Below are positions 50,200-59,308 of a stretch of DNA of 64,000 nucleotides, in pieces; the stretch's first letter is position 1, and each line of letters starts with the position of its first letter. Where the stretch lies: the sequence record NC_048186.1; one strand, given 5' to 3'. Made by a program: the position numbers and the translations under genes. Source of the stretch: Escherichia phage vB_EcoM_KWBSE43-6. Below the pieces are notes generated by a model. The model saw only the letters and a list, made by a program, of their open reading frames with translations, had not been told where the DNA came from and ran no database searches.

Positions 50200-50220
50200 A
50201 ATGGCATCTCCTAATAAATT

Positions 50221-50242
50221 AAGGAGAGTATATACTCTCCTT
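50221..50242. repeat. Perfect 22-nt palindrome AAGGAGAGTATATACTCTCCTT (hairpin or operator)
   Basis: Exact inverted repeat in intergenic gap between two - strand genes. Confidence 0.45.
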
Positions 50243-50261
50243 TTTCAATACGCTTTCAAAT

Positions 50262-50648
50262 TTAGTTCAGGCAGATTTCTCGCCCCAGCGCAGTCAGGCG
50301 ATAGAACTGGATCACTTCCCCACGAGCATAGCGATAATTGCCGTCAGGGGCGTCATGACCGCCATCATGGGTTACAGTAAACCAAGGCTCAATCAACCCT
50401 TTCTTGAGTAGAGACTCCCCGGTTTGGGTATCCCAAGGATCACCCAGGACGTTGGTCAGATGCCGGCTCGGGGTAAAATTCCAAACGCGGACACCTTTAG
50501 AATTTTTCCAGGATTTGGCATAACGTTTGGAATTGATAATAAGCCGGTTGCTGTCTTCAGATTTCAACATACCGAACATATAATTCAATTGATGGCCCGT
50601 ATAGCGAGGCCACTTTTGAGTTTTCACAACAGTATCTTTCGTTTTCAT
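50262..50648 (-). CDS. Hypothetical protein
   Basis: 128 aa ORF. Confidence 0.4.
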   Translation of the reverse strand: MKTKDTVVKTQKWPRYTGHQLNYMFGMLKSEDSNRLIINSKRYAKSWKNSKGVRVWNFTPSRHLTNVLGDPWDTQTGESLLKKGLIEPWFTVTHDGGHDAPDGNYRYARGEVIQFYRLTALGREICLN

Positions 50649-51016
50649 AATATTCCCGCTCTTTCAAGGATAATTTCAACTTCACCCCAATCCACAAAGG
50701 GGCGCTTAGACATTGGGTCATAACTCAGAGGACAACCAAGAGCAGCGTCGTCAATATACAATTGCGCATATGCTTTTGGTGAATCTGTCCATTCATGCTG
50801 TGTGGGATTCTTGTTGATACCATACAGCGGGATATCAAATGACTGGAACCAATCAACCGCTTCTTCAAGTTGTTTCCCGCTGCGCATGGTGAACAGAATC
50901 AGAAGATGATTTTTATCCACCAACTTCTTTAGAATCTCTACAGCACCGATATGGCGTCCGATGAGAGGGTATTCATGGGTAACGCACGTCCCATCAAAAT
51001 CGATACCGATTATCAT
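50645..51016 (-). CDS. HAD-superfamily phosphatase (small)
   Basis: N-terminal GIDFDGT (DxDGT motif I); 123 aa. Confidence 0.55.
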
Positions 51017-51585
51017 AATGATTCCCCATTGTGAAGCTGTAACAGTTCTTTAAACGTAGCCGGGCGGCGTAAATGATCCCAGCTTGAGTTCAGGTAATCC
51101 GGGTTCCCTACTTTGCGGGAATGCCAATGCCCGTGAACATTATATTCCCAACGATCCAGGAGTACGGGCACATGAGTGACAATCACTTTGGAAACGCTGC
51201 CGTCACTCCGAGCCATCTTGTATTCAAACAAAGAACCGAATTTGCTGATCCATTCACTTAGGAATAACTGCATCAGCATTGAAAAACTGTCGTGGTTCCC
51301 CTGAGTTACTTTGATGTTGAAGTTGGGCCGCCAATCATCAGGAACCTTACCATGCATCTTTGGTAGGTTACGCGCCGCGCCTTCTCGCATCAGTTCGATG
51401 AACGCATCTGGGCCACCGAAGCATGTGTCGCCCGTAATGATCAAGGAATCATCCCGGCCACACGTTTGGAATATGCTGTCGATAACTGCGATGTCGTGTT
51501 CATCAACTGTTTCAAACCCACGTGATTTGGGGATCTTTTTATGTTTCAGGTGGGGATCACCCAAAAAGAAAACTTTACCCGCCAT
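51013..51585 (-). CDS. Calcineurin-like metallophosphoesterase (lambda-PPase/ApaH-like)
   Basis: Motifs GDPH, GDT, GNHD, GHWH in canonical order; start at ATG 51585 with GAGGA RBS. Confidence 0.6.
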
Positions 51586-52036
51586 ATTCTTTTCCTCTGA
51601 GATCATTATAGAAATTGATTAACATATTGTCAGTCCATCCTGACCAGTCGAATACATCAAAATCAGCCACACCTTGGTACATATTGACGATAGCAGGCGA
51701 AAATATGACATCAACCTGATTTTTATCGTTGTCATTCACCTGAACTTTGATCCAGAACAAAGATCGGTCTTCCAGAATATGTGCCAATTTAGGATAACGA
51801 GAGGATATTTCCAATGCCCACACATCTAATATAGAACGAAAATCATCTTCCATTTTATAAATGAATGCCGTGGAAATCGGATGGCCAAGATATGGACTCC
51901 AGGATTTATATTGTGTTACTTCCTGGATGCTGGACACCAATGGTATCACCAATCCCCGCTGATATTGTGCTGACAAAGAAGGGATAGAATTAAGATATGA
52001 CAATATCTCTTCACGCTGAATCTGTGTTAATTTCAT
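51575..52036 (-). CDS. Hypothetical protein
   Basis: 153 aa ORF, overlapping stop/start with the QueC-like gene. Confidence 0.4.
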
Positions 52037-52698
52037 TTTAGTCCCACCTCATAACGATGACGAGTACAGGCCATACAATCGCAGTTCTTTTTCAGAACCG
52101 GATATTCACACCAGGTCATCATCCCGTAAAGAGGACGAAGGGCTTCATAAAACCAGGCTTTCTTCAACCCGATCATGGGGAACAACAATTCAGCCGGGCG
52201 ATTTTGTGGATCAGCCAACATAGCATACCCTTCCATGATCTTATTGAAGGAACGGATATACTGCAGGGCATCATCACCGTTCACATATGCCATGACATAC
52301 GTCTCAGGATAGATAGATGCAAGCTGAGTGCCAAGCAACCATATTGGGGCTTGGGCCAATGCTGAACGGAAAGGGCCAGCTGCTTCTACCTTTAATATAG
52401 GGATTTCATCATTGTCCCAATGTTGTGTTAATTCTGGACGATATTTTTCTGCCCATTGTCTGATCTTTTTCCTAGACCACATTTCACGCCGGGACTTGAA
52501 CGAGTTGTTCTCCAGGTCGCAGTAGATCGTCCGGACATAATATCCGTGAGAAAGCAACCAGAACAGCATGTATGTACTGTCAACACCGCCAGACCAGAAC
52601 AAAGTCACACTCTTATCATTGAAATGCATGGGTAACTTTTGTCCTTCCAACACGTCGCGTACAAATTCTCTGTCATTGAATTCTACATTGATTTCCAT
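52033..52698 (-). CDS. PP-loop ATP pyrophosphatase, QueC-like (7-cyano-7-deazaguanine synthase family)
   Basis: SGGVDST PP-loop at residues 36-42; C-terminal TWCEY-x8-CDCMAC-x2-R resembling the QueC zinc-binding Cys cluster; 221 aa. Confidence 0.55.
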   Translation of the reverse strand: MEINVEFNDREFVRDVLEGQKLPMHFNDKSVTLFWSGGVDSTYMLFWLLSHGYYVRTIYCDLENNSFKSRREMWSRKKIRQWAEKYRPELTQHWDNDEIPILKVEAAGPFRSALAQAPIWLLGTQLASIYPETYVMAYVNGDDALQYIRSFNKIMEGYAMLADPQNRPAELLFPMIGLKKAWFYEALRPLYGMMTWCEYPVLKKNCDCMACTRHRYEVGLK

Positions 52699-52700
52699 GA

Positions 52701-52943
52701 TTACGCCTTAATCATTCCGAGAGCCTGGGCAATATACCGTTCCGCCCCCTTTAAAGAATCCTTAATGATCTTATAGAATTCTTCCCTGGTCACAATATGA
52801 CTATCAGCCATATACGTGTTGGTCGTAATGCCGTGAGAATCACGGGCATAATGATGGTATAATTCTACACCACCAACATTGAATGTGACAGTTCTGGTAC
52901 GGGATATGCTCATGATTTGTCTCGGGTTAGATAGATATATCAC
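52701..52943 (-). CDS. Hypothetical small protein
   Basis: 80 aa ORF; stop overlaps QueC-like start (TAATCATG). Confidence 0.3.
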   Translation of the reverse strand: MIYLSNPRQIMSISRTRTVTFNVGGVELYHHYARDSHGITTNTYMADSHIVTREEFYKIIKDSLKGAERYIAQALGMIKA

Positions 52944-52954
52944 AATAATACGTT

Positions 52955-52988
52955 ATTTCTTATATAGAAAAGCCCCTTACGGGGCTTC
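52955..52988 (-). terminator. Hairpin terminator (AAAGCCCC TTAC GGGGCTT) on - strand
   Basis: GC stem; T-rich on - strand 3' side. Confidence 0.45.
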
Positions 52989-53327
52989 ATCTTTATCAGA
53001 TTTATAAACTTCCCATCGGCCTATTCCACGCCATTCACCAAGATCGTTCCAGGTGCGAGTCCCTACCCAGCCACCAACTTCATAATAATGACATATACAT
53101 GCCCAGAAGTCTTTGAAAGTTACTTTCCGAGTTGGTTTCACACATGCGATTTGCCAGCGGGTTAAGCTGATTGCCTGGAACAATGGATGGATATAATTGC
53201 TATAGATCAAATATATCGCGATGAGCACAATGCATCCCACAAATATCATACCGATAGCAGTGAAAATAAACATTATTCCACCTTTAATCCCATCAGATCT
53301 TCCATGGTTTTCTGGATGCGGAGCCAA
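52977..53327 (-). CDS. Small membrane protein
   Basis: One long hydrophobic helix GIMFIFTAIGMIFVGCIVLIAIYLIY. Confidence 0.4.
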   Translation of the reverse strand: MAPHPENHGRSDGIKGGIMFIFTAIGMIFVGCIVLIAIYLIYSNYIHPLFQAISLTRWQIACVKPTRKVTFKDFWACICHYYEVGGWVGTRTWNDLGEWRGIGRWEVYKSDKDEAP

Positions 53328-53902
53328 TCCAGCGCAGCATCATAACGAGGATCATGGTATACCATGCCTTCCAGTTCCCATGCCTTGATGCCGGCATAGC
53401 GATCCATCTGGCCAACGCCTTTCAGCCAGCTGACGATATCAAATGTGTGGTGATAATCCCACGGCTCATTGGAGTATTGCCCGCATGTCACTTCAATGAT
53501 ATGCTGGGCTTTACGCAGATCGAATAGATTTCGATCACACCAGTCAACCGACCTGGGATCAACCCCCAGGCGATGACACCCTTTGCGAATTTCGTCGGCC
53601 AGCTGATAGATGGAGATATCATCTTCCTTTGGATACAGGCTGACTTCACGGGCGGCATCACATGGATTATATTTCCCGTTCCCCAGCCACCAGTCTACAG
53701 TCACTTTCTCTTTGACACGACCGAGGTCGATTTGCTCTTTGACATTCAATTTAATGAATGTAGTACGTTCTTCGACTAGTTGCTGGAGAGTATAACGTTT
53801 GGTCAAATCAGCTACTGTCTGCGCCCAGGATAACATAACAGCGTCATCCCAGCGGCCCAGGGTTTCACTATCGGCGACCGCCAAAATATTTGATTTATAC
53901 AT
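53273..53902 (-). CDS. DnaQ-like 3'-5' exonuclease (T4 DexA-like)
   Basis: Exo I-like ILAVADSETLG and Exo III-like YHDPRYDA motifs; about 209 aa; start ATG 53902 with GGAGGG RBS. Confidence 0.55.
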   Translation of the reverse strand: MYKSNILAVADSETLGRWDDAVMLSWAQTVADLTKRYTLQQLVEERTTFIKLNVKEQIDLGRVKEKVTVDWWLGNGKYNPCDAAREVSLYPKEDDISIYQLADEIRKGCHRLGVDPRSVDWCDRNLFDLRKAQHIIEVTCGQYSNEPWDYHHTFDIVSWLKGVGQMDRYAGIKAWELEGMVYHDPRYDAALDWLRIQKTMEDLMGLKVE

Positions 53903-54500
53903 TGTTACCCTCCACCCGGATAATTTCTTCTTCAGAATCGACGACGTTGATGTCATCATCCAGCGCGTTCAGATTTTCCATGTCTTCCGCAAACTTGTCT
54001 ACTTCCATGATGTAGAACACGGGGACAACCCGGCGGCGAGTGTCTTCGTACAGGGTTTCAGCCAGCGCTTCTACCTGGCGGACAACGTCATAAAGATTAA
54101 GACCGCCGATACCGCAGCCGATAGCTGGCAGGCCGATATAGACCGTTTCAGAATCCTTCGCTTCCATAATCTCGTGAAGTTGTTCAAACATCACTTGTAC
54201 AGAACTGATAACGGAAGGCATACGAGCATTTGGGCCTGTATAGAATTGAGTATACAGATTGAAGCCCCAAACACCCGTGTCACGGTCAAAGGCATAAGAC
54301 ATGCCACCGAGACGCTGCTCCGGCCCGCGCTCATCGTTCTGGTCTGCGCGCCAGACGTCAGGAAACCCCAGCCGAACGAAATTGGCGATACCCGCGCCCA
54401 TCACCGACCAGCAATTGGCGCCATGGGCGAATCCGTTAATAAGATTGAAACTTTTCGCGGCTTCCAACAAATTCCCACCACGAATGATATACGTTGTCAT
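53895..54500 (-). CDS. Macro domain protein (ADP-ribose binding/hydrolase family)
   Basis: NGFAHGANCWSVMGAGIA and GLPAIGCGIGGL blocks match macro-domain signature loops; 201 aa. Confidence 0.6.
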   Translation of the reverse strand: MTTYIIRGGNLLEAAKSFNLINGFAHGANCWSVMGAGIANFVRLGFPDVWRADQNDERGPEQRLGGMSYAFDRDTGVWGFNLYTQFYTGPNARMPSVISSVQVMFEQLHEIMEAKDSETVYIGLPAIGCGIGGLNLYDVVRQVEALAETLYEDTRRRVVPVFYIMEVDKFAEDMENLNALDDDINVVDSEEEIIRVEGNNV

Positions 54501-54730
54501 ACAATTCTTCTCCAGGTAATGTTGATGTCATCAATAAATTCAAGGCAAAAAACGCCGCCATCTCCTTCACTATTGTTGATGGACATGATAGATGTTCTCT
54601 CGTCGGCGGCGATAATATTAACCCCAAACCCTTTGGACATCAAACGGAAAGCGATTTCTTTTACAATCCGATTGAGATACGCAGGGGTGGTTGCCGGGTC
54701 AAAATATATTTCGAACTCAGGCATCACCAA
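54497..54730 (-). CDS. Hypothetical small protein
   Basis: 77 aa ORF coupled to macro gene. Confidence 0.35.
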   Translation of the reverse strand: MVMPEFEIYFDPATTPAYLNRIVKEIAFRLMSKGFGVNIIAADERTSIMSINNSEGDGGVFCLEFIDDINITWRRIV

Positions 54731-54966: not shown

Positions 54967-55009
54967 TTACCAGTTATGGGATTAGGCGGTAATAATACCG
55001 CCTTTTTAT

Positions 55010-56022: not shown

Positions 56023-56064
56023 ATTAAAGCCCTCGCAGGTGGCGGGGGCTTTTGGCCCCCTGTA

Positions 56065-57397: not shown

Positions 57398-59308
57398 TTA
57401 TTCATCCTCTGTTTCGAACAAGCAAACGTCACTAAACCAGGTCTTGCGGTAATCCGCCGCCTTATCACCAAACCCATCATTCAATGAATTCTTGTAGGCA
57501 TCATCCAGAACGACCGTCGTAGTATACGCATCCAGATTGTTTAGAATACGTTTGAAATCTTCGGTGCTGTTACCCCCAAGACCTTTCAGATATTTCTTCT
57601 TTGTGATCTTTTTAGATTCTGGGGTCTTCATGAACTCTTCATATTCGGCGTTGTTCATGAACTCATGCATTTCTTTACCGCACCACACACGCATGTACGG
57701 GGAGCGCAGAAGTTTAAGACGCCCCTGGCGGACATATTCTGGCCAGAACGTACAGTACATGGTAATCAACAGGCCACGGATATGAATGCCGTCATCGTCC
57801 GCGTCCGTAGCGACAACCGTGCAAGGATAACGGCTGGTGTCAATCGGTTGCCCCGGTACTGCGCCGCCGTGGATAGTACACAGGTTCTTGAATTCTTCGT
57901 TGGCCATGACCTTGGCGCGCGAAGCGTTCAAGCAGTTGATGAATTTACCACGCAGAGGAAACAGACCGATTTTCTTGGTGTCACGGGCATTGAGGATAGG
58001 GTTAGACGCGCTATCACCCTCGGTCAACACCAGTACGCAGCCTGAACGATCACCACGGGCCGTCGCGGGATAATACTTTTCAATTTCACGATAATCGCGT
58101 TTGGTGATTTCCTTTTTGGCCTTTTCAAACTCAGCGTCATCCTGGTCATTACGCAAAGCCGCCAGTTCCTTACCCAAGCCGATGGTAACATATTCCAGCG
58201 CCTTACGAATCAAGCGATCAGACGGTTTGTATGTTGTTCCAAACTGACTGACAGGTGTGGTCATGCGCTCTTTAGTCTGACTATCAAACCGGGGGTTATC
58301 GATGTCAGCAGATATGAAAAGCATCATATGGTTCTTGATCATCGCTGGCTTCAATTCTGTCTTGAATTTTTTAGACAGCGGAGTACGAATCGCAGCAACG
58401 ATCTGGTCGGCAACATAGTCGACATGCGGCCCGCCGACGTGAGTAGCGATACTGTTGACATACGACGCATGCATGAACGTGCCGTTCGAAGGCGCGATAG
58501 CAACAGACCAATCCCCTGATTCGTCTACAGATGAACCCTGGCAGAAGTAATCCACGAAATGACCAAAGCGATCAATCCGGATAGGCTTGCCATTGAGGAC
58601 GATCTTCAAACGAGGGTTACACGCCGCTACTTCAAATGCCCGGCGGTAGATCATCAGCAGATTATTGTTATCCAGACCTTTGATCCCCAGACGTTCATAA
58701 TCCGGGATCCAGGCGATGGTCGTACCCGGCGCGTTCAGGTTACTGATCGTCGGCTCTGAACGTTTGCTCATATTGTTCTCAAACGTCTGGAGATAAGACT
58801 TCTTGCCGTCGTTGGTAGATACCCGGAACCATTTTGAGAACACGTTTACGAGAGAAGCGCCTTCGCCGTTCTGGCCACCAGATTTCTTGTTGTTGTACTC
58901 TTCGTCATCATCGTTGAAGTTACTACCAGCATACAAGGAGCCGAAGAGCATCTCCGGGAGCCATTCTTTGGTCTCACCGTGTTTTACCACAGGGATGCCG
59001 CCGTTGTCAGAAACGATGATCTGGCCATTCATCGCCATTACCGTAACAGTGATCTCGTTGAGGCGTTTCCCCTCAGGAGTTTTGCTATGGTCAACGCAGT
59101 TCGTGATAATCTCATCGAACTGTTTGATCAGCGCCGGGGAATAGGTAAAGTTGTCCTTGAACACAACCTGATCTTTTACCGGGTCATAAACCCAAACCGT
59201 CCCGGATGTTGAACGGATACTGCCCAGATGACGTTCTGGGCGGAGAAGGATATGCTCTACATGGGAGAGCTTCTTGTACTTTCTTTCAATGTTAACGTTA
59301 CTGGTCAT
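57398..59308 (-). CDS. DNA topoisomerase II large subunit (GyrB-type ATPase + TOPRIM; T4 gp39+gp60 equivalent in one ORF)
   Basis: 636 aa; GHKL ATPase N-terminus (HILLRPERHLGS, NCVDHS), TOPRIM block VLVLTEGDSAS, C-terminal PLRGKFINC region contiguous. Confidence 0.85.
   Translation of the reverse strand: MTSNVNIERKYKKLSHVEHILLRPERHLGSIRSTSGTVWVYDPVKDQVVFKDNFTYSPALIKQFDEIITNCVDHSKTPEGKRLNEITVTVMAMNGQIIVSDNGGIPVVKHGETKEWLPEMLFGSLYAGSNFNDDDEEYNNKKSGGQNGEGASLVNVFSKWFRVSTNDGKKSYLQTFENNMSKRSEPTISNLNAPGTTIAWIPDYERLGIKGLDNNNLLMIYRRAFEVAACNPRLKIVLNGKPIRIDRFGHFVDYFCQGSSVDESGDWSVAIAPSNGTFMHASYVNSIATHVGGPHVDYVADQIVAAIRTPLSKKFKTELKPAMIKNHMMLFISADIDNPRFDSQTKERMTTPVSQFGTTYKPSDRLIRKALEYVTIGLGKELAALRNDQDDAEFEKAKKEITKRDYREIEKYYPATARGDRSGCVLVLTEGDSASNPILNARDTKKIGLFPLRGKFINCLNASRAKVMANEEFKNLCTIHGGAVPGQPIDTSRYPCTVVATDADDDGIHIRGLLITMYCTFWPEYVRQGRLKLLRSPYMRVWCGKEMHEFMNNAEYEEFMKTPESKKITKKKYLKGLGGNSTEDFKRILNNLDAYTTTVVLDDAYKNSLNDGFGDKAADYRKTWFSDVCLFETEDE

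Follow-up and report, generated by a model that had tools for sequence, protein, structure and literature searches.

Gene content of the region

The DNA analysed here is a stretch of 64,000 nucleotides from Escherichia phage vB_EcoM_KWBSE43-6 (NC_048186.1), referred to below as the window. Positions 50645-54500 of the window are occupied by eight minus-strand open reading frames (ORFs), as established from the ORF list and a table of gene junctions, and one of these encodes the macrodomain protein that is our main subject. An initial annotation had described an early-gene cluster of eight to ten translationally coupled genes with macro, metallophosphoesterase, HAD phosphatase, exonuclease and PP-loop ATPase products, and had proposed that they constitute a single counter-defence or repair toolkit. 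An early timing of these genes would be by analogy with T4. The packing and all of the named domains are borne out, the domains by profile or structure matches well above chance, and the question is therefore what the macrodomain protein does and whether its neighbours belong with it.

Read leftward, the run begins with the macrodomain protein of the Tk.4/AdfM family (53895-54500; 201 amino acids; PHROG 335, E = 3e-65) and a DexA-like DEDDh 3'-5' exonuclease (53273-53902; 209 amino acids; PHROG 255, 1.7e-53), for which a longer ORF reaches 53959 and relatives annotate a 630-nucleotide form. These are followed by a 98-amino-acid small membrane protein with a hydrophobic N-terminal helix (52977-53273; PHROG 2531, 1e-32) and a 70-amino-acid ORF (52701-52913; PHROG 16682, 1.8e-45, with a match that begins at residue 11). 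The mechanical call of the latter starts at a GTG at 52943, and relatives annotate a 213-nucleotide form. The remaining genes encode a QueC-family PP-loop ATPase (52033-52698; 221 amino acids; PHROG 1550, 3e-68), a 153-amino-acid product with no Pfam match (51575-52036; PHROG 17979, 6e-40), a metallophosphoesterase (51013-51585; 190 amino acids, or 197 from an alternative start at 51606; PHROG 547, 5e-43) and a capless HAD phosphatase (50645-51016; 123 amino acids; NCBIfam NF046079, PDB 2OBB).

Six of the seven junctions are overlaps of 1-11 nucleotides or 2-nucleotide spacings, often in the form of ATGA or TAATG, which is consistent with translational coupling. For example, the exonuclease start overlaps the macro stop by 8 nucleotides, and the start of the 98-amino-acid gene shares 1 nucleotide with the exonuclease stop. 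The seventh junction is a 63-nucleotide gap between the 70- and 98-amino-acid ORFs, and holds a terminator-like GC hairpin followed by a U-tract (52964-52987, minus strand; AAGCCCCGUAAGGGGCUUUUCU). The 77-nucleotide gap region (52914-52990) folds at -15.8 kcal/mol. This predicted terminator would divide the gene run into two units, with the macro and exonuclease genes on one side and the phosphoesterase genes on the other.

GC-rich hairpins of -14.5 to -17 kcal/mol are present on the minus strand in all four intergenic gaps of the longer run to which these genes belong (56023-56064, 54967-55009, 52914-52990 and 50200-50261), and a clear U-tract accompanies only the hairpin at 52964-52987, not the three other gap hairpins. 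Scanning all of the window against Rfam and for tRNA genes gave no match. A promoter scan returned weak consensus matches only, 36 where 25 were expected, and because these are weak we do not propose a promoter.

By nucleotide identity, the region is part of a Taipeivirus (Ackermannviridae) genome whose closest relatives are Klebsiella phages. A megablast search of GenBank phages with 50645-54500 matched 54 records, every one of the Ackermannviridae type, with Klebsiella, Serratia, Salmonella or Shigella hosts. The top relatives, Klebsiella phages 0507-KN2-1, UPM 2146 and phi1_146021, are 96-98% identical and are classed as Taipeivirus. Annotated relatives have a common leftward order of rIIA/rIIB, a MazG-like pyrophosphatase, topoisomerase II, small ORFs, the macro gene (or 'phosphatase'), exonuclease, QueC-like gene, phosphoesterase, 'phosphoheptose isomerase' and dCMP deaminase, and one public record of a relative names the 201-amino-acid protein 'macro domain-containing protein'. 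Public records thus already carry an annotation of this region. In the window, a dCMP deaminase gene follows 0.8 kb downstream, and upstream are topoisomerase II and MazG genes of the same orientation. Positions 50645-54500 are thus an ordinary stretch of the leftward rIIA-topoisomerase-dCMP deaminase gene run.

The macrodomain protein

Both macro peptides quoted in the initial annotation are present in the 201-amino-acid protein, NGFAHGANCWSVMGAGIA at residues 22-39 and GCGIGGL at residues 128-134. A BLASTP comparison with T4 Tk.4 (translated from tk.4) gives 35% identity over 123 amino acids (E = 9e-18), and the two proteins have the motifs HGxNC..MGxG(I/V)A, NLYTQ and IGxGIG in common. By sequence comparison the protein is an orthologue-level relative of Tk.4/AdfM, a stand-alone macrodomain (PHROG 335). 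In tblastn searches it matches 2652 of 50,697 phage records, among them those of T-even phages in which the gene is annotated tk.4, whereas the Thermus DarG macrodomain as query retrieves a separate, smaller set of 275 phage records, chiefly chimalliviruses. On these searches the protein falls in the common Tk.4 lineage, not in the Lys-type DarG lineage.

T4 Tk.4 and the window protein both come from large lytic myoviruses, and in both the NLYTQ motif places a glutamine at the position of the DarG lysine. They differ in length, the window protein being 46 amino acids longer. Residues 165-201 (53895-54005 in the window) form an acidic C-terminal extension, with 13 Asp or Glu against 2 Lys or Arg among 37 residues, that is kept in Ackermannviridae homologues and missing from T4 Tk.4. 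AlphaFold2 models this extension with high confidence as helix-strand-helix. That it acts as a DNA mimic, or contacts the replisome or DarT, would be a guess. Gene neighbourhoods also differ: the macro gene of the window is flanked by the DexA-like exonuclease and a DUF7234 gene, whereas T4 tk.4 lies between vs and tk.3. The DUF7234 protein (Pfam 1.5e-33) is encoded by a small ORF immediately upstream of the macro gene (54497-54730), for which the mechanical call starts at a TTG.

Profile searches give a related picture of the fold. The match to Pfam Macro is under the cut-off (E = 0.023), and the only significant matches in NCBIfam and PADLOC are DarG models. The NCBIfam DarG antitoxin model matches at 1.5e-10, with 41 bits against a cut-off of 250 bits and over only positions 5-137 of its 338; the PADLOC DarG model matches at 2e-10, and DarG macrodomain chains in PDB (5M3I, 5M31 and 7OMU) match at about 1e-4 (best 9e-5). 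AlphaFold2, supplied with 35 homologues, yields a model with a mean predicted local distance difference test score (pLDDT) of 94. When this model is compared with PDB by Foldseek, human TARG1/OARD1 (4J5S) is the best match (2e-9), and DarG of Thermus aquaticus and Mycobacterium tuberculosis (5M3E/5M31 and 5M3I; 2e-8 to 2e-7) and yeast Poa1p (6LFR; 4e-8) are close behind. MacroD-type and viral nsP3 macrodomains rank lower. Sequence identity to TARG1 and Poa1p is 17-20%. Sequence and structural model together indicate an ADP-ribose-type macrodomain of the DarG/TARG1 clade, and not a MacroD- or Af1521-like protein.

The active site departs from that of DarG, for which N22 and K80 have been published as active-site residues (PMC13309987). 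In an alignment with two DarG chains, N22 corresponds to a conserved N29 in the window protein. The column of DarG K80 and TARG1 K84 is occupied by a glutamine, Q85, which is invariant (35 of 35 family members) and shared by T4 Tk.4. The second TARG1 residue considered, D125, is likewise not kept. In common with TARG1, the window protein has an 'AH' motif ahead of its first ADP-ribose loop. The aligned TARG1 sequence served only as a lead, and the TARG1 fold match rests on Foldseek.

Residues invariant in the family alignment are H26, N29, C30, D53, N81, Y83, Q85, G128, G130 and G133. The seven invariant polar residues favour an enzyme over a plain binder. The initial annotation had considered that the protein might lack the residues that bind ADP-ribose; the ADP-ribose loops and N29 are conserved in the alignment, and binding of ADP-ribose is to be expected from it. 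Because the catalytic lysine of DarG and TARG1 is an invariant glutamine here, the lysine-based chemistry of those enzymes cannot apply, and a DarG-like hydrolase cannot be assumed in mechanistic terms.

In fold, clade, ADP-ribose loops and the N22 equivalent, the window protein resembles DarG2 and the PhiKZ gp104 AdfM, and by analogy with them its expected target class would be ADP-ribosyl-thymidine in single-stranded DNA. It differs from DarG2 in having Q85 for the catalytic K80, in lacking a C-terminal DarT-binding domain, and in the genes beside it. No darT is adjacent, the neighbours being the DUF7234 gene and the exonuclease gene, and neither the exonuclease nor the other genes within the region match PADLOC, in a scan outside which the DUF7234 ORF lay.

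Neighbouring enzymes

The exonuclease and T4 DexA are similar in size and align along the entire protein (E = 5e-4 for PDB 8KEL, and 2e-9 in a pairwise comparison with the product of T4 dexA). Identity is 23%, and the DEDDh residues (D-E, D and H-x4-D) align with those of DexA. By analogy with T4, its substrates would be single-stranded DNA and oligonucleotides, shortened from the 3' end.

The HAD protein matches PDB 2OBB (BT0820) at 1e-16, with which it shares the catalytic motifs (DFDGT, T/S and DD) and a capless architecture. It also matches NCBIfam NF046079 at 8e-25, at 87.8 bits and hence below the 165-bit equivalog cut-off, and is a candidate member of the BT0820 family. The name 'phosphoheptose isomerase' carried by this protein in PHROG 1238 and RefSeq looks like a mislabel, given these matches. 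A literature search with the name BT0820 found no match.

All five motifs of the metallophosphoesterase superfamily (DxH, GD, GNH[DE], H and GHxH) are present in the metallophosphoesterase, and its metal ligands D10, H12, D53, N97, H98, H138, H151, H153 and H155 are invariant across nine diverse homologues. Pfam has no metallophosphatase match to this protein or to six homologues even at E<=10, and neither phmmer nor a shallow family profile finds anything significant in PDB. A broader profile, built with homologues from T5-like, Aeromonas, Rhizobium and Staphylococcus phages, matches aq_1665, an uncharacterised Aquifex protein (1XM7), at 8.8e-16, and then Mre11/SbcD, GpdQ, Lmo2642 and Rv0805. 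Homologues in T5-like phages have 25-30% identity, and a D-x-H-x-x-H start motif and the full set of metal ligands are shared with aq_1665. Sequence profiles thus assign the enzyme to the group of aq_1665 and the T5-like 'phosphoesterases'.

The metallophosphoesterase had been described as lambda-PPase-like. Ser/Thr phosphatases of the PPP family carry the signature GDxHG, GDxVDRG and GNHE, from which the GDPHLKH, GDTCFGG and GNHD motifs of the window protein differ. The broader profile search of PDB retrieved no PPP-family chain at E<=1. In the T5-like Providencia phage PR1 (locus L108, 2495-3878), the gene of a metallophosphoesterase homologue is followed directly downstream by a separate one for a NinI-like Ser/Thr phosphatase, so that two different metallophosphoesterases are encoded next to each other. 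The non-PPP motifs, the lack of a PPP structure match and the separate gene in PR1 exclude the lambda-PPase-like assignment.

The Pfam QueC match of the PP-loop ATPase is limited to the PP-loop and lies right at the cut-off. The protein carries SGGVDST and a Cys4 motif, C197(x)8C206xC208xxC211, that is a variant of C(x)8CxxCxxC, and it lacks the canonical QueC motifs YxQxHxxE, VPxRN and YPDC (PMC13329287). Its family has other invariants (N65, K68, E72, R76, Q116-P118-W120 and Y138-V-x-G-D-D) and comprises 1516 representative clusters at E<=1e-3 with no annotation. Neither queD nor queE is found among annotated neighbours in relatives. From its sequence, the protein should not be expected to make preQ0.

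A structural model of the ATPase (pLDDT 82) has Cap9 (9NTO) as its top Foldseek match, followed by TtuA and QueC (3BL5), all of these being loose matches with a TM-score of about 0.5. Cap9, matched here at a low TM-score, is the deazaguanylation enzyme of type IV CBASS (anti-phage signalling systems based on cyclic oligonucleotides). An SGGxDS motif and a Cys4 zinc motif are common to the window ATPase, Cap9, QatC and QueC. Unlike Cap9 and QatC, the window ATPase is not accompanied by Cap10/CD-NTase or QatABD partners in its neighbourhood. For none of the proteins taken as references (BT0820, aq_1665 and Cap9/QatC/QueC) is a physiological substrate defined that could be transferred to the window proteins.

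Gene order, accessory cassettes and function

Co-occurrence was assessed at 80 IMG/VR loci that contain a macro homologue, 20 from Ackermannviridae and 60 from other phages, by searching each locus and 6 kb on either side with all window proteins. The 20 Ackermannviridae loci have a constant order of topoisomerase, macro, exonuclease, metallophosphoesterase and dCMP deaminase. Within them the exonuclease is found at all 20 loci, the metallophosphoesterase at 18, the QueC-like gene at 15, the HAD gene at 6 and the 153-amino-acid ORF at 4. Outside the family, the exonuclease, HAD and QueC-like genes are each found within 6 kb of the macro gene at 0 of 60 loci, the metallophosphoesterase at 1 and dCMP deaminase at 3. 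Macro homologues have other neighbours in other phages, a Vequintavirinae homologue being near an RNA ligase gene and an Ounavirinae one among small ORFs. Six distant loci of the QueC-like gene, obtained by pattern-based retrieval, include none of the other genes.

Closely related phages also differ in these genes. Among Taipeiviruses with >90% flank identity, blastn alignments reveal clean cassette differences with breakpoints at gene boundaries and at least five arrangements. The cassette junctions are at 51013-51019, 51626/52041, 52700 and 52910 (region 51013-52913; loci L001, L007-L010 and L087). An additional 396-nucleotide ORF lies between the HAD and metallophosphoesterase genes in 0507-KN2-1, Menlow and phi1_175010. 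The 153-amino-acid ORF occurs in some Taipeiviruses only and is missing from 0507-KN2-1 and Menlow, while the QueC-like gene is missing from phi1_175010, May and locus L007, the last of which is without a 1.9-kb block (51019-52910) that includes the metallophosphoesterase. In IME250 the HAD gene is missing, and an insert separates the macro gene from that of the exonuclease.

Judged from these comparisons, the adjacency of the genes is an inherited gene order of one phage family, within a variable accessory island. The HAD, metallophosphoesterase, 153-amino-acid and dispensable QueC-family ATPase genes would be accessory cassettes, each gained or lost individually among near-identical phages. 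Mutual dependence is improbable for genes that assort so freely among relatives. The cassette pattern is typical of a variable accessory region, possibly one with anti-defence functions.

Counter-defence remains the best reading, by analogy, for the macro gene alone. In transposon sequencing, Tk.4 (AdfM) is the single T4 gene required for growth on DarTG2 hosts (bioRxiv 10.1101/2025.11.20.689424), and the AdfM protein gp104 of PhiKZ strips DarT2 ADP-ribose from DNA in vitro (PMC13309987). The part of the initial annotation that assigned the macro gene to counter-defence is thus upheld by its homology to a protein with a protective role in T4, and weakened by the absence of the DarG/TARG1 catalytic lysine. 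An anti-DarT2 role is nevertheless still the best reading because T4 Tk.4, with the same glutamine, protects against DarTG2. Most likely, the macrodomain protein binds the ADP-ribose that host DarT2 places on thymidines of single-stranded phage DNA. It would then remove this group or otherwise neutralise it, such that phage replication continues; we infer the substrate and hydrolysis from its relatives, and neutralisation could proceed by another hydrolytic mechanism or by binding. We estimate a probability of roughly two in three that the macrodomain protein is an anti-DarT macrodomain of the AdfM type, set within a line-up of independently acting accessory genes and not within one system.

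Several points weigh against this conclusion. The T4 Tk.4 result is genetic, not biochemical, and comes from a preprint. With the catalytic lysine missing, hydrolysis of ADP-ribosyl-thymidine is not guaranteed, and Poa1p, an ADP-ribose-1''-phosphate phosphatase, is nearly as close in fold. As for the neighbouring genes, the macro, exonuclease and metallophosphoesterase genes stay syntenic across Ackermannviridae genera and may have a lineage-specific functional link. The co-occurrence searches were single-sequence tblastn comparisons with a threshold of 1e-4 and a reach of 6 kb, a design that misses very distant homologues and partners located farther away.

The macrodomain protein might act on something other than DarT products, as a Poa1p-like enzyme that processes ADP-ribose-1''-phosphate or O-acetyl-ADP-ribose, or as a non-catalytic ADP-ribose binder. 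The glutamine in place of the DarG/TARG1 lysine and the Foldseek rank of Poa1p structures, just after TARG1 and DarG, agree with this possibility, as does the T4 record, which lists an 'A1pp phosphatase motif' for Tk.4. The Poa1p substrate, ADP-ribose-1''-phosphate (Appr-1''-p), derives from tRNA splicing. However, the T4 homologue with the same glutamine is specifically required on DarTG2 hosts, and significant matches in NCBIfam and PADLOC are to DarG profiles only, which makes such a function unlikely.

A different explanation for the neighbouring genes is that the exonuclease, metallophosphoesterase and HAD protein take part, alongside the dCMP deaminase and MazG-like pyrophosphatase encoded on either side, in the metabolism of DNA precursors, for example in nucleotidase or deoxynucleoside triphosphate exclusion steps for the modified DNA based on 5-hydroxymethyldeoxyuridine (hmdU) that is reported for Ackermannviridae, and that the macro gene is an unrelated neighbour. 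The positions and common direction of the dCMP deaminase, topoisomerase II and MazG genes fit this explanation. Phages with hmdU in their DNA induce nucleotide phosphatases, and T4 annotation ties DexA to host DNA breakdown. Even so, we regard a shared role in the nucleotide pool as improbable. The HAD gene is present at only 6 of the 20 family loci and the metallophosphoesterase is missing from the near-identical Taipeivirus locus L007, so neither is essential for family-wide DNA modification, and among the nearest solved relatives of the metallophosphoesterase, 1XM7 is uncharacterised and the others are diesterases and nucleases.

A further possibility, which we consider rather doubtful, combines a distinct macrodomain activity with distinct cassette functions. 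The Tk.4-type macrodomain, with invariant Gln, His and Tyr for the DarG/TARG1 Lys and an acidic C-terminal module in Ackermannviridae, could use a chemistry or an ADP-ribose-linked substrate other than that of DarG. Each of the cassettes (the aq_1665-type, phosphodiesterase-like metallophosphoesterase, the capless HAD protein and the non-canonical QueC-family ATPase) could meanwhile encode an uncharacterised anti-defence enzyme that, for example, degrades nucleotide immune signals or interferes with deazaguanylation-dependent Qat or type IV CBASS.

The proposal that the macrodomain protein, metallophosphoesterase, HAD phosphatase, exonuclease and PP-loop ATPase form one toolkit acting on shared ADP-ribose-derived metabolites or on damaged RNA ends is very unlikely: although the genes lie side by side in one orientation and mostly overlap, the macro, exonuclease and metallophosphoesterase genes are syntenic across Ackermannviridae genera, and HAD and calcineurin-like enzymes occur in some viral NAD/ADP-ribose RNA-repair neighbourhoods (PMC9503650), co-occurrence all but vanishes outside the family, presence and absence vary independently among near-identical phages, and the terminator-like hairpin parts the macro and exonuclease genes from the phosphoesterase genes. 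The idea that the phosphoesterases act on damaged RNA ends was dropped because genes for an RNA ligase, a polynucleotide kinase or Tpt1 are absent from the vicinity. This negative result guards against reading a lineage-specific gene order as a system.

If the macrodomain protein is of the anti-DarT type, the newly defined AdfM-type macrodomains would also include members from Ackermannviridae that infect Klebsiella, Salmonella and Escherichia. Such phages, which find use in phage therapy, would then be predicted to resist hosts that carry DarTG2. The commonest family of phage macrodomains, found in almost ten times as many records as the Lys-type family, is without the catalytic lysine of DarG and TARG1, and these proteins may neutralise DarT2 by some other route.

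Farther upstream in the gene run, the mechanical ORF for the medium subunit of topoisomerase II shares 83 nucleotides (57398-57480) with the gene of the large subunit, and the start of the medium-subunit gene is uncertain. The medium subunit is shorter in the annotation of relatives, and Kuttervirus has an additional ORF at the junction of the medium- and large-subunit genes.

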